DNA of 46,525 bases, from contig JAWWPL010000246.1 in NCBI GenBank assembly GCA_033850605.1, positions 1 through 46,525 on the forward strand. The letters run 5' to 3'. Shown here piece by piece: positions 25,473 through 46,189 of this stretch. This stretch comes from Blastocatellia bacterium. GTDB lineage: Bacteria; Acidobacteriota; Blastocatellia; Pyrinomonadales; Pyrinomonadaceae. Each line of letters begins with the position of its first letter. Positions within the stretch are counted from its first letter, which is position 1. Position numbers and translations under genes: made by a program. The notes under the pieces were generated by a model. That model was given only the letters and a program-made list of their open reading frames with translations, had not been told where the DNA came from and made no database searches.

Positions 25473-25553
25473 CGGTAGCGACCGGGTCTCAATCCACGCC
25501 ATGGTCGAGTTTGTCGGAAAATAACCCGGTCGCTACCGCTCCCGGTTCTGACC
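25473..25553. repeat. 'ggtcgctaccgctcccggttctg' family palindromic element
   Basis: cggtagcgaccgggt (25473-25487) is the exact reverse complement of acccggtcgctaccg (25524-25538). The right arm continues as ctcccggttctgacc, as in the copies at 39411-39522. Three direct cgcagaga repeats follow (25561-25597). Confidence 0.75.
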
Positions 25554-37471: not shown

Positions 37472-37545
37472 GTGTGTCAGAAGCCCGACCGTTAGGGAGG
37501 GCGGCTTTGGGAAACATGCCCTCGCTCACGCGCGGGCTTCTGAAA
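37472..37545. repeat. 'gtgtgtcagaagc...gcttctga' palindromic element (uninterrupted copy)
   Basis: tcagaagcccg (37477-37487) pairs with cgggcttctga (37533-37543). The inner arms cgttagggagggc / gccctcgctcacg are partly complementary. It belongs to the same family as 43987-44166. Confidence 0.7.
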
Positions 37546-37555
37546 CCTTTTCATC

Positions 37556-37960: not shown

Positions 37961-39247
37961 ATGCCGTCAGCCACCAAGTATCAGGCGACAGCCGATCCAG
38001 TAGACCAGAGCGCCGGGACGTACGCCTGGTATGCGCTCGGCCTGCTCACGTTCGTCTATGTCCTCAACTTTCTCGATCGCACACTGATCTACATTCTCTT
38101 CACGCCGATCAAGAAGGAGATGGCGTTTTCCGATTTGCAGCTGGCGCTGCTCGGCACGACTTCGTTCGTCATTTTTTATACAGCCCTGGGAATTCCTTTC
38201 GGTCGTCTCTCTGATCGCATAGTCCGCAAGAACATGATTGCGTCCGGTCTTGCGGTGTGGAGCGTGTTCTCTGGTCTCACCGGATTTGCGAAGGGGTTCT
38301 GGACCTTGTTCTTCTGTCGCGTAATGGTTGGTGTGGGCGAAGCGACGTTGGGACCAGCGGCGCTGTCATTGCTGAGTGATTATTTTCCGCCGCGACGGCG
38401 CGCCACCGTCCAGGCGATTTACTCATCGGGTATCGCAGTGGGCGCCGGCTTGGCTTTCTTTCTTGGAGGATGGGTGGGCCAGCACTTCGGATGGCGCTCG
38501 GCGTTCTACCTGCTCGGTTTTCCGGGACTGTTCATTGCCGTGCTGGTTTTTCTGCTCAAGGAAAAGCCCCGAGGTCAAACGGAAACGGCCACAGTTCAAT
38601 ACACCAGCAAAGATTGGAAAATATTATTTCGGTCGGTTCCTTTGCGATACCATTATCTCGGTTACGCGCTGTTTGGTCTTGCGGCCAACAATTTGTCGAT
38701 TTGGGGCGCGACATTTTTTGTGCGCGTGCACAAGCTTGATATCGCCACGATCGGTTTCTTTGGGGGTGTATTGTCGCTGGTGGCCGGAGTGCCCGGGACT
38801 ATTCTCGGCGGTTGGGCCGCGGATCGATTTCGCGGCTTCGGTCGCGGCGGACGAATGCTTTTCAGTTCCGTGGCGGCGCTGATTGCGATTCCGTTCTGGG
38901 TCATGCTGATCTTTTCCAATAGCCTTCCGCTGCTTCTGATCGCTAATTTCGTATTACTTGGGCTCTCATTAATGTGGCTGGGGCCGGCCGCCGCGGATGT
39001 GCACGACATCGCCGGGCCGCACTTGCGAGGCCTGGGAATCGGTATCTACTTCTTCAGCGTGAATATTGCTGCGTATGCGATTGGTTCGAACCTCATCGGG
39101 ATGCTAAACGACAGGCTGGGCGCTTCCACCAATCCTTTGCAGATGCGCTACTCGCTTCTCATCTGCCCGATTGCGTGTGCGCTGGCGGCGTTGATGTTGC
39201 GGCTCGGCAGCCGCAGTTTGGGAAGAGAGTCACGACTAACGAGCTGA
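37961..39247 (+). CDS. MFS transporter
   Basis: Twelve hydrophobic segments. LNFLDRTLIYILF and the loop 2-3 motif GRLSDRIVRK are typical MFS signatures. Confidence 0.85.
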   Translation: MPSATKYQATADPVDQSAGTYAWYALGLLTFVYVLNFLDRTLIYILFTPIKKEMAFSDLQLALLGTTSFVIFYTALGIPFGRLSDRIVRKNMIASGLAVWSVFSGLTGFAKGFWTLFFCRVMVGVGEATLGPAALSLLSDYFPPRRRATVQAIYSSGIAVGAGLAFFLGGWVGQHFGWRSAFYLLGFPGLFIAVLVFLLKEKPRGQTETATVQYTSKDWKILFRSVPLRYHYLGYALFGLAANNLSIWGATFFVRVHKLDIATIGFFGGVLSLVAGVPGTILGGWAADRFRGFGRGGRMLFSSVAALIAIPFWVMLIFSNSLPLLLIANFVLLGLSLMWLGPAAADVHDIAGPHLRGLGIGIYFFSVNIAAYAIGSNLIGMLNDRLGASTNPLQMRYSLLICPIACALAALMLRLGSRSLGRESRLTS

Positions 39248-39270
39248 TGCCCTGCCAAAGCTCGTGATTA

Positions 39271-39331
39271 TTCGTGTGATTTCATAGATCGCATTTGTGT
39301 GGGTGAAGCTCGATCCACGAAATCACATGAA
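39271..39331. repeat. 'ttcgtgtgatttc' family inverted repeat
   Basis: ttcgtgtgatttcatagatcg (39271-39291) versus cgatccacgaaatcacatgaa (39311-39331), 18/21 complementary. Confidence 0.6.
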
Positions 39332-39410
39332 GCTTGACGACAAATTGCTCTGGCAAAGGAAAACCTATGCGCCTCTGCGGTATCGCATTGTTTGCACAAG
39401 AGCAAGTCGT

Positions 39411-39522
39411 TACAGAACCGGGAGCGGTAGCGACCGGATGCTAGCACTCAGCGACGGACTAGAAGCGCAATTAATTAAAGGGTTGAATGTAGCATCCGGT
39501 CGCTACCGCTCCCGGTTCTGTA
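39411..39522. repeat. perfect 33-bp inverted repeat ('acagaaccgggagcggtagcgaccgg' family) with a 46-nt loop
   Basis: tacagaaccgggagcggtagcgaccggatgcta (39411-39443) is the exact reverse complement of 39490-39522. Related copies lie at 25473-25553 and 35542-35636. Confidence 0.85.
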
Positions 39523-39554
39523 ATAAAACTTCACCTGTCGGTATCCATTCGATA

Positions 39555-39583
39555 TTGACAGGAAAGACTCTATCAGCTATAAA
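39555..39583 (+). promoter_or_regulatory. sigma70-like promoter for the his leader
   Basis: TTGACA (39555-39560), 17-nt spacer, TATAAA (39578-39583). The leader ATG lies about 30 nt downstream. Confidence 0.5.
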
Positions 39584-39613
39584 ACCTGAGTTCCGAAAGT
39601 GAGCGCGAACTAT

Positions 39614-39730
39614 ATGAGCTTCGTTAGCACCCATCATAGCCACCACGTGCACCATCGTGCCGACCATTATCGGCAGCGGGGCAGCGTGCCGGCGATTGTG
39701 ATGCGGAAGCTCGAAGCGATAACAGAGTAA
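39614..39730 (+). CDS. hisL: his operon leader peptide (38 aa, 7 His in residues 7-18)
   Basis: Manual translation gives MSFVSTHHSHHVHHRADHYRQRGSVPAIVMRKLEAITE*. It is too short for the ORF track. It sits between a promoter-like element and a terminator, directly upstream of hisZ. Confidence 0.7.
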   Translation: MSFVSTHHSHHVHHRADHYRQRGSVPAIVMRKLEAITE

Positions 39731-39753
39731 CCAGCGAACAAATCAAAGGTTTC

Positions 39754-39798
39754 AAACCCGCTGCCCGTGATGAACGAGGCAGCGGGTTTTTCTTTTTG
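39754..39798 (+). terminator. intrinsic terminator of the his attenuator
   Basis: aaacccgctgcc (39754-39765) pairs perfectly with ggcagcgggttt (39778-39789) over a 12-nt loop, followed by ttctttttg. ggcagcggg (39672-39680) in the leader can pair instead with cccgctgcc (39757-39765). Confidence 0.75.
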
Positions 39799-39828
39799 TA
39801 GTCACGAGCCAGGAGCGATTTACTTTGT

Positions 39829-40956
39829 ATGTCTGAACCACTCTCAAGAATGCCGACCGGAATGCGCTATTACTCTGGCGCGGAAGCGCGACTGAGGAGG
39901 GCGATCGAAACCACCCTGATGTCGGTCTTCGAGGGCTGGTCTTACGAAGAAATAACTACCCCGACGGTTGATTACTATTCTCTTTTTGAACGTGGGATGG
40001 GACGCTCGCTGGCGCATCATGCTTTCAGATTTTGCGACACGGATGGACGCCTGCTGGCGATCAGACCTGACGTTACGTCCCTGGTCGCGCGCGCCGCGGC
40101 TACCCTTTTCGCTGCACGTGAGCGGCCCCTGCGCTTGTGTTATGCAGCACCGGTATTCCGCCAACAACCTCAGTCTCACGCGGAATGGAGGAGAGAGTCG
40201 ACGCAGATTGGTGGTGAACTGATCGGCGCTCACAGTAGCGCAGCCGATATGGAGGTTCTGGCAATGGTCTGCGAAGCACTGGAGCGTCTGGATTTGGATC
40301 GCGATTCATTGATCACCTTAAACGACGTCAATGTATTTAATGGCATCGCTGAGCAGTTGCAACTCGCGGCCGACGCCCGGAACGAAATGCGCGAGCTGGT
40401 GGATACGCGCAATGCCACCGACCTGGAGCGCTTTCTGGTGACCTGTTCGTCTGTCGAAGAGTCACGGGCCTTCGCGCAACTGGTTCAACTTTCGGGCAAG
40501 CGCAATATTTTGAATGACGCGAGGCGGGTGATAACAAACCCACGGTCGCAAGCTGCGCTCGATCGTCTCGAGCGCTTGTGGTCCGTGATCGAATCGCTGC
40601 ACTTGACGGATTGCTTCGAAATCGATCTTGGGGATGTAGCGTGGCTCGACTACTACACGGGTCTGACTTTCAAAATCTATGTCAGAGGCGCGGGGGCCAG
40701 GATCGGAAGCGGTGGCCGTTATGACGGTCTGACTGAGAGCTTTGGCCGAGCCGAGCCGGCAGTAGGGTTCGTGCTGGATCTTGATGGATTGACGGACGTC
40801 TTAATGGGCAGGTCGCATAAGCCGGGCTTTATGCAGGCGTCAATGCAGGCGACCCAGCCACGCGGCGAAGGGCTGAATGAGTTATTCGCAGCCGCGAGAA
40901 CGAAAAGGGCACAGGGTGAACGGGTCGTGCTGAACACAAACGAGGTGGCGCAGTGA
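39829..40956 (+). CDS. hisZ: ATP phosphoribosyltransferase regulatory subunit HisZ (HisRS paralogue)
   Basis: Class II aaRS-like core without an anticodon domain (GWSYEEITTPTVDYYSLF, FRFCDTDGRLLAIRPDVT, YYTGLTFKIY, GGRYD). It sits immediately upstream of a short-form hisG. Confidence 0.88.
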   Translation: MSEPLSRMPTGMRYYSGAEARLRRAIETTLMSVFEGWSYEEITTPTVDYYSLFERGMGRSLAHHAFRFCDTDGRLLAIRPDVTSLVARAAATLFAARERPLRLCYAAPVFRQQPQSHAEWRRESTQIGGELIGAHSSAADMEVLAMVCEALERLDLDRDSLITLNDVNVFNGIAEQLQLAADARNEMRELVDTRNATDLERFLVTCSSVEESRAFAQLVQLSGKRNILNDARRVITNPRSQAALDRLERLWSVIESLHLTDCFEIDLGDVAWLDYYTGLTFKIYVRGAGARIGSGGRYDGLTESFGRAEPAVGFVLDLDGLTDVLMGRSHKPGFMQASMQATQPRGEGLNELFAAARTKRAQGERVVLNTNEVAQ

Positions 40957-41597
40957 CGGAGTTAACCATCGCCATTGCCAAAGGCAGGTTGCAGGCTGAA
41001 ACGCTGGATCTGCTAAAGAGCGCCGGGCTCGTCTTTTCGGCTGAGGCCCTCTCGTCGCGCCGCCTCGCGATCGAAGATGAGACCGGGCACTTTCGATTGA
41101 TCTTCGTGAAGCCCGCTGATGTTCCCGTTTACGTCGAACGTGGGATCGCGGACTGCGGCATCGTAGGCCGTGATGTGTTGTTGGAATCTAACGCCGATCT
41201 TTTGCAGCCCCTCAGTCTCAATCTGGGCGCCTGTCGCATCGTGGTCGCGGCTAAGAACGAAAAAGCGGCCAGGCAGGTAGGAATGCTGAAAGTCGCGACC
41301 AAGTATCCACGAATCGCCGCCCGCCATTTTGGCGCTCGCGGCGTGGCCGTCGATCTAATCGAGTTATCCGGGTCGGTTGAATTGGCGGCCGTACTCGGAC
41401 TTGCTGATTGCATCGTTGACCTTGTTGAGACGGGCAAGACGCTTCGTGAGAACGAACTAAGCGTTGTCGACGTCATCACTGAATCATCGGCGCGCCTTGT
41501 TGTGAATCGCGCCAGCTATCAACTGAAAGCTGAAACGGTAAGCCAGTTTATTAAATCACTCGACAAAACAATTCAGAGGCGAGGGAACGGTGATTGA
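40953..41597 (+). CDS. hisG: ATP phosphoribosyltransferase, short form
   Basis: LTIAIAKGRL, DVPVYVERGIADCGIVGRDVL, VATKYP and DLVETGKTLREN. Length 214 aa. GTGA overlap with hisZ. Confidence 0.92.
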   Translation: MTELTIAIAKGRLQAETLDLLKSAGLVFSAEALSSRRLAIEDETGHFRLIFVKPADVPVYVERGIADCGIVGRDVLLESNADLLQPLSLNLGACRIVVAAKNEKAARQVGMLKVATKYPRIAARHFGARGVAVDLIELSGSVELAAVLGLADCIVDLVETGKTLRENELSVVDVITESSARLVVNRASYQLKAETVSQFIKSLDKTIQRRGNGD

Positions 41598-42894
41598 AGT
41601 CATAAATACTCGTAATCAGCAGCGACTGGCCGACAAGTTACAGCGCGTTCGGGAGCGCAACGTCGTCCTCGACGCCGATTTACTGAGCCGGGTCGAAGCG
41701 ATTATCGCCGACGTTCGCCGGCGGGGTGATGCAGCCTTGCTTGATTACGCGGAGCGATTCGACGCTTGTGTCATGCAGGCGTCCGAGCTCCGGATTAACG
41801 AGCAGCAGCTGCGCCGGATCGCCGCGTCCGTCGATGCTAAGGTGCTGGAGGCGCTGCGGGAAGCCATCAAGAACGTCAGACGCTTTCATGAACACGAGCG
41901 ACAACAGTCCTGGGAGATTGAACCAGAGACGGGCGTTCGTTTGGGACAACGCATCACGGCAATCGAGCGCGTCGGCTTGTATGTTCCCGGCGGAACGGCG
42001 AGCTATCCATCGTCGGTAGTGATGAACGTCGTGCCCGCGCAAGTCGCGGGCGTCGCGCGAATCATAGTAGCGACCCCGCCACGTTCGCTGCGAGAGAATC
42101 CGGCTGTAGCTGCGGCGCTCCTGGAGTTGGGAATCGACGAAGTTTACGCGGTGGGTGGGGCCCAGGCTATTGCAGCGCTCGCCTTCGGCACCGAGACCGT
42201 ACCGCGGGTGGACAAGATCACCGGACCGGGAAACCGCTATGTGGCGGCCGCGAAGAAGCTCGTATTTGGCACAGTCGGCATCGATTCGATTGCCGGACCA
42301 AGCGAAGTTGCGATCATCGCGGACGACACGGCGCACGCTGAATTCCTGGCGGCGGATCTCCTGGCACAGGCGGAACACGGTGAAGATGCTTCCGCGATCT
42401 TATTAACGGTCAGCGAGCAGCTAGCGAAGGACGTGAGCGCTGAAGTTTCCAGGCAGGCGGAATCGTTACCGCGCCGGGCCACGGTTGAGAAATCATTGGC
42501 TCATTATGGCGCGATCTTGTTAGTCAAGGATCTCGACGAGGCGTGCGCAATTATTAATACTTTGGCGCCAGAGCACCTGGAGATTGTTACCGGCGATGAC
42601 GAGACCGTGGCGGCGCGAATTCAACATGCCGGAGCCATTTTCTTTGGGTCTTACACTCCCGAAGTCGTCGGCGATTACTTCGCCGGTCCAAACCATGTAT
42701 TGCCTACTGCCGGAGCAGCGCGATTCTCTTCAGCGCTGAGTGTTTTCGATTTTGTCAGGCGCACCAGCGTGCTGCGTTATTCGCGTGAAGCGCTGAAACA
42801 GTCGGCGGAAAAGATTGCGACGCTGGCTAATGCTGAAGGTCTGGACGCGCACGCACGATCGGCTGCGATTCGGTTCGATCAGTTGATGAGTTAG
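41590..42894 (+). CDS. hisD: histidinol dehydrogenase
   Basis: VGLYVPGGTASYPSSVVMN, GGAQAIAALAFGT, IAGPSEV, AQAEHGEDA, APEHLE and GDYFAGPNHVLPT. Confidence 0.95.
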   Translation: MIEVINTRNQQRLADKLQRVRERNVVLDADLLSRVEAIIADVRRRGDAALLDYAERFDACVMQASELRINEQQLRRIAASVDAKVLEALREAIKNVRRFHEHERQQSWEIEPETGVRLGQRITAIERVGLYVPGGTASYPSSVVMNVVPAQVAGVARIIVATPPRSLRENPAVAAALLELGIDEVYAVGGAQAIAALAFGTETVPRVDKITGPGNRYVAAAKKLVFGTVGIDSIAGPSEVAIIADDTAHAEFLAADLLAQAEHGEDASAILLTVSEQLAKDVSAEVSRQAESLPRRATVEKSLAHYGAILLVKDLDEACAIINTLAPEHLEIVTGDDETVAARIQHAGAIFFGSYTPEVVGDYFAGPNHVLPTAGAARFSSALSVFDFVRRTSVLRYSREALKQSAEKIATLANAEGLDAHARSAAIRFDQLMS

Positions 42895-42896
42895 CG

Positions 42897-43982
42897 ATGA
42901 AAAGCCCATTGGACAAAATTAAGCCTGAGGTACAGACCCTGCGCGCGTACTCGCTTTCGCCGCATCGCGCGCGCATAAAGCTTAATCAGAACGAGAGCCC
43001 CTGGGACGCTCCGGCTCGGATCAAACAAGAGACGCTGCGACGGCTGGACACGCGCGAATGGTCACGCTATCCGGATTTCGTTCCTGAGAGTCTGCATACG
43101 CGGCTGGCGGAGTTTTCAGGCTGGCGAGCGGACGGCATCATTGCAGGAAATGGATCGAACGAATTAATTCAGGCGCTGCTGATGGTGACGGTTGGCCCGG
43201 GTAAGCGTGTGCTGATCTCCGAACCCACGTTTGCGCTCTACCGGCAATTAAGTACGGTGCTTGGCGGCGAAGTTATCAGTGTCAACCTCACGCCGGAGTT
43301 GAGCTACGACACGAACGCCCTGCAAGAAACAGTCAGCCACTTGCAGCCCAATGTGACGATTGTCTGCTCACCAAACAATCCTACGGGCTGCCTGCTAAGC
43401 GATCAGGACTTGCGCACACTGCTTAAATCATCAAGTGGAATCGTCGTGATTGACGAGGCGTACCATGAATTCGCCGGGCATTCAGTTGTGCCCATGCTTC
43501 GCGATCACGAAAACCTGGTGGTCCTGCGGACGTTTTCAAAGGCGATGGCGATGGCGGCATTGCGCGTCGGATATTTGCTGGCCGCGCCGGCGCTCGCGGC
43601 GGAGATTAGCAAGGCAGTCCTGCCCTACAACCTGAACGCCGTCTCTCAGACTGCCGCCGAGGTGGCAGTCGAACTGTACCAAGAAGAGTTGCAGCCCCTG
43701 GTGCGAAAGATCATCGCCGAGCGCGAACGATTGTACGGCGAGTTGGGTCGCATCGCGGGGCTTAAGCCGGTGCGCTCTCGCGCTAACTTTATGGTTGTGC
43801 ATTCGACGATCGAGCCGAGGAATATCTTCACTGAATTGATCAAGAGGGACATTTTGGTTCGCGATGTTAGTGGCTATCCCATGTTGAAGGATTACTTCCG
43901 AGTCAGTGTTGGAACACCAGAAGAGAATAATCTTTTGTTGAGGGCACTGCGTGAGATATTCCGTGACAATCTCAGGCTTTAA
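42897..43982 (+). CDS. hisC: histidinol-phosphate aminotransferase
   Basis: KLNQNESPW, GNGSNELI, SPNNPTG, IDEAYHEF and RTFSKAMAMAALRVGY (PLP Lys). Confidence 0.93.
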   Translation: MKSPLDKIKPEVQTLRAYSLSPHRARIKLNQNESPWDAPARIKQETLRRLDTREWSRYPDFVPESLHTRLAEFSGWRADGIIAGNGSNELIQALLMVTVGPGKRVLISEPTFALYRQLSTVLGGEVISVNLTPELSYDTNALQETVSHLQPNVTIVCSPNNPTGCLLSDQDLRTLLKSSSGIVVIDEAYHEFAGHSVVPMLRDHENLVVLRTFSKAMAMAALRVGYLLAAPALAAEISKAVLPYNLNAVSQTAAEVAVELYQEELQPLVRKIIAERERLYGELGRIAGLKPVRSRANFMVVHSTIEPRNIFTELIKRDILVRDVSGYPMLKDYFRVSVGTPEENNLLLRALREIFRDNLRL

Positions 43983-43986
43983 GAGA

Positions 43987-44166
43987 GTGTGTCAGAAGCT
44001 AATCGTGAGAGAGGGCGACACTTAGAGCTGGGAGCGCGGACGTCTCGTCCGCACAGCGTGCGCACCACGCTAATGCTTTTCGCGCTTCGCGCTCAGTGCG
44101 GACGGGACGTCCGCGCTCCCAGCGCCCCGAACGTTGCCCTTGCTCACGCGCGGGCTTCTGACACAC
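43987..44166. repeat. nested palindromic elements between hisC and hisB
   Basis: Outer arms gtgtgtcagaagc (43987-43999) and gcttctgacacac (44154-44166) are exact reverse complements. Inside the loop is a second element with 28-bp arms, gctgggagcgcggacgtctcgtccgcac (44027-44054) and gtgcggacgggacgtccgcgctcccagc (44096-44123), with 1 mismatch. Confidence 0.85.
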
Positions 44167-44187
44167 CCTCCAAACGAACAGGTGTCT

Positions 44188-44796
44188 ATGAAGATGAAAA
44201 AACAAAACCATATTCGCGAGGCGGAAGTTCAACGCAAGACCAAAGAAACGAATGTGCGCGTCAAGCTAAACCTCGACGGCGATGGCCGTTCGCGCATCGA
44301 CACCGGCCTCCCCTTTCTCGATCACATGCTCGATCTGTTTGCGAAGCACGGATTGTTCAACCTCGAGATTGTCTGCAAAGGCGATTTGGAAATCGACGAC
44401 CATCATTCAGTTGAAGACATCGCAATAACACTTGGCCAGGCGCTGACCGATGCGCTGGGCAACAAGTTGGGCATCAAGCGTTATGGCGAAGCTACTCTGC
44501 CAATGGATGAAGCCTTATGTCGTTCCGTGATCGATCTCTCAGGCCGTTTCTACCTGGTCTATGAAGTGGCGACCAGACGTCAGAAGATTGGAAACTTTTC
44601 GATTGAGTTGGCGGAACACTTCTGGCGATCGTTTGCCGAAACTGCGAAATTCAATTTGCACATCGATTGTTTGCGCGGCCGTAACACTCATCACATTCTC
44701 GAAGGCACCTTCAAGGCTACCGCCCGCGCCTTGCGCCAGGCCGTTGAGCGTGACCCGCGCATCACCGGTGTCTTGAGCACAAAGGGAGTCCTCTAA
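44188..44796 (+). CDS. hisB: imidazoleglycerol-phosphate dehydratase (monofunctional)
   Basis: RKTKETNV, GLPFLDHMLDLFAKHG, DDHHSVEDIAI and HHILEGTFKATARALRQA. The track start 44134 lies in repeat sequence. Start moved to ATG 44188. Confidence 0.92.
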   Translation: MKMKKQNHIREAEVQRKTKETNVRVKLNLDGDGRSRIDTGLPFLDHMLDLFAKHGLFNLEIVCKGDLEIDDHHSVEDIAITLGQALTDALGNKLGIKRYGEATLPMDEALCRSVIDLSGRFYLVYEVATRRQKIGNFSIELAEHFWRSFAETAKFNLHIDCLRGRNTHHILEGTFKATARALRQAVERDPRITGVLSTKGVL

Positions 44797-44798
44797 TC

Positions 44799-45416
44799 GT
44801 GCCGCAAATCGCCATCATCGACTATGGAGTCGGCAATCTGCGTTCGGTTGAGAAAGCGTTTGCCGCGAACGGCTGCGTCGCTGTCGTCACCGCGGACCTG
44901 AGCGTGTTGCGTAGGGCCGGGCGCTTGGTGCTTCCCGGAGTTGGAGCCTTCGGCGCCTGCATGAACGCGCTCGCTGAACGCGGATTTGATGATTTGGTGC
45001 GCGAGCGCAGCGGTGCGGGAACGCCTTTGTTGGGCGTTTGTGTGGGGATGCAATTGCTCTTTGAAGAATCGGAGGAGTTCGGCGCTACGAAGGGTCTTGG
45101 CCTTTTACCTGGCCGCGTTCGCCGCTTCTCAGACAATCTGCCAAACAGTCTGGTAGTGCCGCATGTCGGGTGGAATCAAATCCGCCAGCGAACGACGCAT
45201 CCACTGTTCGCTGGAATAGAAGACGAAGCATTCTTCTATTTCGTGCACTCCTACTATTGCGAACCGGCGCAGGACGAAATGGTTCTGGGCGAAACGGATT
45301 ACGGTGTGACTTATGCCTCTGTGATTGCGCAAGAGAATCTTTGCGGCGTGCAATTTCATCCGGAAAAGAGCCAGGAGGCCGGCCTCAGATTGTTGGCAAA
45401 CTTTGCGCATGCCTGA
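44799..45416 (+). CDS. hisH: imidazole glycerol phosphate synthase, glutamine amidotransferase subunit
   Basis: [39 protein letters not shown] (catalytic Cys) and HVGWN..., GVQFHPEKS. Confidence 0.93.
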
Positions 45417-45421
45417 TTTCT

Positions 45422-46189
45422 ATGCTGGCAAAACGAATCATACCTTGTCTGGATGTAGATCGCGGCCGCGTGGTCAAAGGCATTCGCTTTGTCTCGCTGG
45501 TTGATGCGGGCAGTCCGGTTGAGCAGGCTGTAAGGTACGACGCCGAGGGCGCCGACGAGCTGACCTTTCTTGATATCACCGCTTCTTCGGACAAGCGCGA
45601 GATTGTCTCTGAACTCGTCCGCCGGGTCGCCGACGAAGTCTTCATTCCCTTCACGGTGGGCGGAGGATTGCGGTCTTTGGCAGATATTCGCGCAGTGCTT
45701 CGTTCTGGCGCCGATAAAGTTTCGCTCAACACCGCCGCGATCGAGAAGCCGGAACTAATCAAAGAGGGCGCCGAAACATTCGGATCGCAGTGCATGGTTG
45801 TGGCCGTCGACGCGCGCCGGCGCGATCCCGACGATGCGAGTAAAGGCTGGGAGGTTTTCACCCACGGCGGCAGAATCCAGACCGGGCTCGATGCGAGCGA
45901 GTGGATCGCCCGCGCCGAAAAACTGGGAGCCGGAGAGATTTTGCTGACCAGCATGGATCGTGACGGCACGAAAGACGGATACGATATCGAGCTGACGCGG
46001 GCAATTTCCGCCAGCGTTCGCATCCCCGTGATCGCGTCTGGTGGCGCGGGAAAGCCCGAACACTTTTACGAAGCGTTAATCGAGGGGGGCGCGAGCGCGG
46101 TGCTGGCGGCATCACTTTTTCACTTTGGCGAGTATCAGATTTCCGACGTTAAGAATTATTTGCGCAAGCGAGGAGTAGTGGTGAGATGA
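45422..46189 (+). CDS. hisF: imidazole glycerol phosphate synthase, cyclase subunit
   Basis: [72 protein letters not shown] and AASLFHF. The track start 45170 lies inside hisH. Start moved to ATG 45422. Confidence 0.93.

Follow-up and report, generated by a model that had tools for sequence, protein, structure and literature searches.

The histidine operon of contig JAWWPL010000246.1 (Blastocatellia bacterium, a soil acidobacterium, assembly GCA_033850605.1), a stretch of 46,525 nucleotides (nt) referred to here as the window, is preceded by a leader that is very probably a ribosome-mediated, leader-peptide transcription attenuator, by which hisZGDCBH would respond to the supply of histidine or charged tRNA-His. 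An earlier note, made from the letters of this DNA alone, had described a TTGACA-17-TATAAA promoter, a 38-codon open reading frame (ORF) with seven histidines among its residues 7–18, and a 12-bp stem with a T tract at 39754–39798 in front of hisZ, and had likened the whole to the ribosome-stalling layout of enterobacterial hisL. Promoter and ORF lie exactly where it had placed them, the terminator was confirmed, and the layout is supported by comparison with relatives: the promoter is kept in 70 of 74 related loci, homologous leaders were found in 76 of 80, and in folds with a masked ribosome the predicted antiterminator formed in 53 of 61 loci with the ribosome on the His codons but in only 18 of 61 without one. 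The parts of the element and the operon behind it are collected in Table 1.

Table 1. Parts of the putative his attenuator and the operon downstream, in window coordinates
Feature	Coordinates	Strand	Remarks
Sigma-70-type promoter	39555..39583	+	-35 TTGACA 39555-39560, 17-nt spacer, -10 TATAAA 39578-39583; direct reading
Leader-peptide ORF, 38 codons + stop	39614..39730	+	ATG 39614, TAA 39728-39730; peptide MSFVSTHHSHHVHHRADHYRQRGSVPAIVMRKLEAITE
Regulatory His-codon tract (segment 1)	39632..39667	+	7 His codons within codons 7-18
A (hairpin arm GTGCCG)	39657-39662	+	Small hairpin in the His run
B (hairpin arm CGGCAG)	39671-39676	+	Pairs with A; small hairpin spans 39657..39676
C, extra perfect copy, GGCAGCGGG	39672-39680	+	Copy of terminator 3' arm; overlaps 3' arm of small hairpin
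C, family-conserved column, GGCAGCGTGCC	39680-39690	+	Near-copy of terminator 3' arm
D, GATTGTGAT	39694-39702	+	Complementary to CAUCAU His codons and to E
Segment 2 (antiterminator 5' strand)	39672..39702	+	Both C copies and D
E, AACAAATC	39737-39744	+	Weak partner of D in this genome
F, AAACCCGCTGCC	39754-39765	+	Terminator 5' arm and antiterminator 3' strand
Segment 3	39737..39765	+	E and F
G, GGCAGCGGGTTT	39778-39789	+	Terminator 3' arm, pairs with F
Intrinsic terminator	39754..39797	+	12-bp G+C-rich stem, 12-nt loop, T tract 39787-39797
Operon hisZ-hisG-hisD-hisC-hisB-hisH	39829..45416, extends past range	+	Pfam assignments; hisZ ATG 39829, 31 nt beyond the T tract; hisG of the short form

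Promoter, leader and terminator in related hisZ loci

The comparative set consisted of 80 hisZ loci taken from one-genome-per-species bacterial assemblies by alignment of the HisZ protein (53–77% identity to that of the window). Nearly all of the records bear the name Blastocatellia, Pyrinomonadaceae or Acidobacteriota in their titles, and the range sampled is the Blastocatellia/Pyrinomonadaceae clade, that is, close HisZ relatives. The best matches of the window HisZ itself are metagenome-assembled genomes (MAGs) labelled Blastocatellia or Pyrinomonadaceae, at 98% identity and below; Pyrinomonadaceae belong to the Acidobacteriota, and the origin in that phylum, on which the earlier note had made its remarks conditional, is confirmed by these matches.

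Almost every locus with sufficient upstream sequence carries an ATG-started ORF of 22–57 codons with 4–9 histidines per 12 residues and, 20–70 nt past it, a hairpin of −21 to −37 kcal/mol with a T run. Most of the apparent exceptions are explained by contig ends (L001, L008, L013, L018, L041), by inserts of 100–390 nt between terminator and hisZ (e.g. L005, L009) or by a non-ATG start (L034); no leader was seen in the short contig of L036. Across the 518 kb of the 80 loci read in six frames, 61 stretches have at least six histidines in 12 residues, and all 61 lie within 950 nt 5' of hisZ on its coding strand. With a covariance model (R1) trained on 69 leaders, the 46.5-kb window yields a single full-length match (39611–39798, 131.9 bits), and 76 of the 80 loci yield one each, eight of these loci lying outside the seed; three of the four loci left without a match are contig ends and the fourth is a short contig. 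One more leader, directly 5' of hisZ, was found in a metagenome (L168); it was the 1 true leader among the 120 stretches listed for the pattern GGCAGCG-N60-90-CCGCTGCC-N8-30-GGCRGCGG, the rest being mostly unrelated G+C-rich DNA.

In the relatives the promoter takes the form TTGACA, a spacer of 17 or 18 nt, and TATAA followed by A, G or C, with the end of the −10 box about 30 nt 5' of the leader ATG. We infer that the leader transcript of the window starts near 39590. Taken separately, a perfect TTGACA stands as −35 box in 70 of 74 loci, and 65 of 74 have TATAAA, TATAAG or TATAAC at −10; the final T of the Escherichia coli consensus TATAAT was found in none. The leader ORF lies 3' of the only conserved promoter and 98 nt ahead of hisZ. 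The terminator hairpin folds at −27.3 kcal/mol, and its motif occurs once in the window. In most related loci merely 20–40 nt or so, and in the window 31 nt, separate the end of the terminator from hisZ, leaving no room for a second promoter, so that the his operon would be expressed only by read-through of the terminator.

The leader ORFs are uncalled, and the mechanical ORF list for the window gives the leader frame solely from an upstream GTG (39599..39730, 43 residues). A consensus promoter and terminator scanner reported nothing for the leader region, which is not evidence against the element since its rules demand a −10 box with T as its sixth base and a terminator loop no longer than 8 nt, where this leader has TATAAA and a 12-nt loop.

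Two MAGs hold two hisZ loci each (L017 and L050 in DASXQM01, L043 and L063 in JAIVJM01), every one with a distinct His leader; either each genome possesses a pair of attenuated his operons or each bin is a mixture of two organisms. Two records carry discordant titles, 'uncultured Clostridia bacterium' for L012 (CAZJQQ010000031.1) and 'Chloracidobacterium sp. UBA6041' for L009 (DIYZ01000066.1). Both labels are probably wrong or loose, given a hisZ of Pyrinomonadaceae type (66–68% identical) and the same leader.

Alternative helices and folding with a masked ribosome

The leader of the window can be divided into segments that form mutually exclusive helices. The comparison of energies proposed in the earlier note covers three folds: a long hairpin 1:2, joining the His tract to 39672–39717 (−46.8 kcal/mol), an antiterminator 2:3 (−38.3) and the terminator 3:4 (the −27.3 kcal/mol given above). 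The 211-nt leader as a whole has a minimum free energy of −80.8 kcal/mol (z = −4.3), a stability reached by 0 of 200 shuffles, in a structure made of the long hairpin and the terminator. As D is complementary to the CAUCAU codons as well as to E, segment 2 (C plus D) can pair either back on the His tract or forward on E and F.

Alignment of the upstream regions of relatives, likewise suggested by the note, showed the His-codon run and the alternative helices to be conserved, with compensatory changes in the stems. Pairs were counted for four specified helices in 69 sequences aligned with MAFFT alone and again in 77 sequences placed in a model-based alignment to which C:F had not been fitted. 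The terminator stem F:G is paired in 92% of cells, with compensatory CG/AU and UA/UG/CG changes among the 77 sequences. The antiterminator helix C:F is paired in 81–82% of cells (69–77 sequences) and varies at three pairs, including a change from A:U to G:C in four sequences with the terminator arm CCGCCGCC; one sub-clade lengthens the helix with UGUG:CACA instead. The inner helix D:E (GGUUGUGA : UCACAACC) is paired in 67–72% of cells and the hairpin A:B inside the His run in 83–84%, the latter with CG in 39 and GC in 22 sequences at one pair, and AU in 28, GC in 17 and CG in 3 at another. Registers slid by 1–3 columns gave 25–49% pairing. RNAalifold on the full MAFFT alignment recovered the terminator core alone, its reach being limited by the variable loop lengths.

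These counts refine the two pairings that had been proposed from the window sequence. The note had taken ggcagcggg, a duplicate of the terminator 3' arm, as the antiterminator strand; the copy is there and pairing of such a strand with F stands, but the strand that the family conserves is the second GGCAGCG copy immediately downstream. It had also assigned anti-antitermination to a pairing of cgtgccg (39656–39662) with cggcagcg (39671–39678). This hairpin is indeed conserved, with CG to GC and AU to GC swaps in both directions, yet sequestration of the antiterminator strand is predicted to depend on the much longer 1:2 hairpin and not on the small hairpin alone.

To represent the decision point, the transcript was folded as it stands just before G is made, with the 30-nt footprint of a single ribosome masked; these are equilibrium predictions. 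In the window, C:F is part of the minimum-energy structure with the ribosomal A site on any of the His codons, and is absent when there is no ribosome or when the ribosome stands at the stop codon. Over the 61 loci the helix formed in 53 with the ribosome on His codons, in 18 with none and in 18 with the ribosome at the stop codon. In a simpler version, in which the His region was masked, the partner of the terminator 5' arm lies at positions 0 to +13 past the last His codon, and the duplex energies of that arm with the post-His segment are better than those of shuffles in most loci. The masked folds match the classical model, in which stalling is predicted to give read-through, and completed translation or none at all to give termination.

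The element would then work as follows. With His-tRNA scarce, a ribosome would stall on the His codons and melt the long hairpin; the freed C, aided by D, would capture the nascent F (and E), the terminator would be blocked, and RNA polymerase would proceed into hisZ. With His-tRNA plentiful, the ribosome would reach the stop codon and cover the D–E region, so that the antiterminator would not be nucleated, F would pair with G, and transcription would end at the T tract. If the leader were not translated, C and D would stay sequestered in the long hairpin and termination would win. A speculative role for the small hairpin conserved within the His run is that of a polymerase pause or timing site, which would couple translation with transcription.

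Several observations weigh against this reading. Covariation of the antiterminator rests on few positions, the cores of C and F being almost invariant. Whole-structure measures exceeded those of 500 out of 500 column shuffles with one exception ('further standard pair types' on the MAFFT alignment, reached by 67 and 93 of 500 shuffles), although such shuffles overstate significance because the sequences are related, and the slid-register control is the fairer one. D:E is weak in the window itself (−5.9 kcal/mol, z = −0.3), and the antiterminator there consequently rests mainly on the 9-bp C:F helix; D:E duplexes computed from the aligned regions are strong in about 35 main-clade loci (a first, unrestricted RNAduplex screen was noisy). 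A Shine-Dalgarno sequence is not recognisable in most leader ORFs, that of the window included, a lack tempered by the finding that only about a third of the long ORFs in the window have one, under a crude assignment of start codons. Finally, in 18 of the 61 loci the equilibrium folds, with their one ribosome, predict the antiterminator even when no ribosome is stalled.

Competing explanations

A more far-reaching version of the attenuator, which we think unlikely, would give it an independent origin, as a family of his attenuators already present in the ancestor of a large Blastocatellia clade and built as a switch of double mimicry, in which the antiterminator 5' strand duplicates the terminator 3' arm while UCACAACC imitates the His tract. 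The covarying hairpin within the His run would add a second checkpoint, such as a programmed pause of the polymerase or a division of the His codons into two sensing blocks, the response to tRNA-His would differ from that of classical attenuators, and translation would start without a Shine-Dalgarno sequence.

Very unlikely is a translation-independent RNA switch (T-box-like, a riboswitch or a protein-binding structure), in which the CAU/CAC repeats would exist purely for pairing. In its favour, conserved helices do involve the His codons, both in the hairpin within the run and in pairing with the GUGAU segment. The leader ORF, however, has the marks of a translated frame: the ATG is conserved, the histidines are in frame and are retained with synonymous alternation (CAT 363, CAC 237), and alignment gaps within the ORF are multiples of 3. 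Conserved start, frame-preserving indels and CAT/CAC variation together point, indirectly, to a leader that is read as codons. In nearly all loci the stop codon falls 3' of the family-conserved strand C and 5' of the terminator's 5' arm, and a conserved multi-helix core resembling a ligand pocket was not seen. A cmscan of 39200–40000 against Rfam 15 (4227 families) at E ≤ 10 gave no match to His_leader (RF00514), to a T-box, to a riboswitch or to any other family above chance level, the hits at this threshold being to miRNA, CRISPR-DR and Trp_leader (14 bits against a cut-off of 41). Identity with a T-box or riboswitch was rejected on this result.

It is highly improbable that a functional small protein, such as a metal-binding peptide, is made from the His-rich ORF, next to an ordinary terminator and a his operon regulated independently. 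In favour of this one may cite the length of the peptides (22–57 residues), greater than that of classical his leaders, and a part that seems conserved (...HHANHHWHxGSA...). The conserved residues other than His nevertheless coincide with the RNA helices. 'GSA' is explained by GGC AGC GC, the antiterminator strand, and the alternatives HHA-N-HHW-H, HHG-V-HHR-H and HHA-H-HHG-H (that is, A..W, G..R and A..G) by the two arms of the covarying hairpin (GCC..TGG, GGC..CGC, GCCC..GGGC), whose compensatory changes alter the peptide. The ORF also always accompanies hisZ, with the short gap after the terminator and no conserved second promoter in most loci. The leader peptide matched no Pfam or NCBIfam family at E ≤ 10, and an exact look-up of ten leader peptides found none among 15 billion predicted proteins.

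Equally hard to credit is a constitutive partial terminator, or an insulator against upstream transcription, that senses no amino acid: a perfect 34-bp palindromic element does lie just upstream (39410–39523) in a region where intergenic repeats are common, but the strong conserved promoter separates the leader from the gene before it, none of the related loci has the same upstream genes, and both the antiterminator alternative and the enrichment in His codons would be left unexplained. In the window, the genes 5' of the leader encode a MaoC dehydratase and an MFS transporter (Pfam), and these are absent from all 80 related loci, while hisZ is followed by hisG in 79 of 80 and by hisD in 78 of 80. 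Because the former are never shared and the latter are, the leader element is assigned to the his operon and not to the upstream gene. That the terminator might be part of the MFS gene was considered and rejected, in view of the conserved promoter between them and the lack of synteny.

Known attenuators and surrounding repeats

Leader-peptide attenuators of the his operon are textbook in gamma-proteobacteria. Four features of a his-type attenuator were found here: a His-codon ORF, an intrinsic terminator, an antiterminator exclusive with it and, as an equilibrium prediction, a His tract that sequesters the antiterminator strand. Like enterobacterial hisL (RF00514, Pfam His_leader), the element stands 5' of the first his gene with clustered His codons and then an intrinsic terminator, and its helices are mutually exclusive, the His-codon segment pairing with the antiterminator strand and stalling predicted to give read-through. 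Homology with hisL in sequence or structure was not found by Rfam (E ≤ 10), Pfam or NCBIfam. The E. coli his leader peptide has 16 residues, against the 22–57 of the Blastocatellia leaders, and seven histidines in a row, where the latter have 7–9 His codons interspersed over about 16 codons. The Blastocatellia leaders further differ in the covarying hairpin inside the His run, in the auxiliary inner helix D:E, in an antiterminator strand that copies the terminator 3' arm and in the want of a clear Shine-Dalgarno sequence in most copies, and their operon starts with hisZ and has a short-form hisG, whereas the hisL operon begins with the long form of hisG.

The division into four segments, with the codons in 1, the antiterminator as 2:3 and the terminator as 3:4, is that of the E. 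coli trp attenuator, and in both an untranslated leader is predicted to terminate. The Blastocatellia element is distinct in that it is predicted to sense histidine and that its segment 2 holds near-copies of segment 4. The stop codon of the trp leader is located at the boundary of segments 1 and 2; here it lies well 3' of the segment 2 core, inside the antiterminator loop.

The his leaders of Firmicutes (Bacillus cereus group, Clostridioides difficile/Peptostreptococcaceae, Erysipelotrichales; PMC2965389, PMC9413887) were predicted by comparative genomics and are also lineage-specific His-codon leaders with terminator and antiterminator before hisZ-led operons. Compared by description, these belong to another phylum and have 3–5 consecutive His codons (PMC9413887), unlike the more numerous and interspersed codons of Blastocatellia, whose antiterminator is, in addition, bipartite (C:F plus D:E). 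The element thus appears to be a lineage-specific attenuator that is predicted to work like hisL or trpL and falls outside the curated hisL families.

Predictions of his attenuators extend to Actinobacteria, the Bacillus cereus group, C. difficile and relatives, and Erysipelotrichales (PMC2965389, PMC9413887, PMC4833913), and new ribosome-mediated attenuators are routinely found as 'uORF' motifs (PMC8632094). Although Acidobacteriota rank among the most abundant bacteria of soils, a 2010 survey had almost no predicted attenuator of theirs with an assigned function (PMC2965389), and in the literature we found no description of a his leader-peptide attenuator in this phylum, in keeping with the earlier note. 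As his leaders were known before from Proteobacteria, Actinobacteria and several lineages of Firmicutes, the understanding of attenuation is unchanged. What is gained is a concrete predicted mechanism of his operon regulation for a family-level clade (77 or more species-level genomes), a set of leaders that can seed a new RNA family model and the annotation of a small ORF that gene callers miss, and a natural example of RNA-structure constraints dictating a peptide sequence.

Palindromic repeats are found on both sides of the leader. The perfect 34-bp inverted repeat (39410–39443 and 39490–39523, 46-nt spacer) ends 32 nt 5' of the leader promoter. Part of its arm, 25 nt long, is found again at 25526–25550 in the window, and both arms recur in another species (L009, 567–607), so the repeat looks like a dispersed palindromic element, of the kind of repetitive extragenic palindromes or miniature inverted-repeat transposable elements (REP/MITE-like), and not like a part of the attenuator. 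The inserts of 100–390 nt between terminator and hisZ occur in L005, L007, L009, L011, L014, L015, L019, L021, L047, L063, L064, L069, L071 and L080; palindromes are present in those of L005 and L009, for example GGACAGGCA..TGCCTGTCC.

Inside the his operon, the gap of about 150 nt between hisC and hisB (44027–44166) holds palindromic repeats of a second intergenic family. Related repeat units occupy the spacer upstream of MaoC (37472–37546), and pieces are also present in L021 and L058. The hisB ORF (44134–44796) is listed from a TTG at 44134 inside this palindromic repeat, and a hisF/hisA-like ORF (45170–46189) from a GTG at 45170 inside hisH; the true starts of both genes are probably further downstream than listed.

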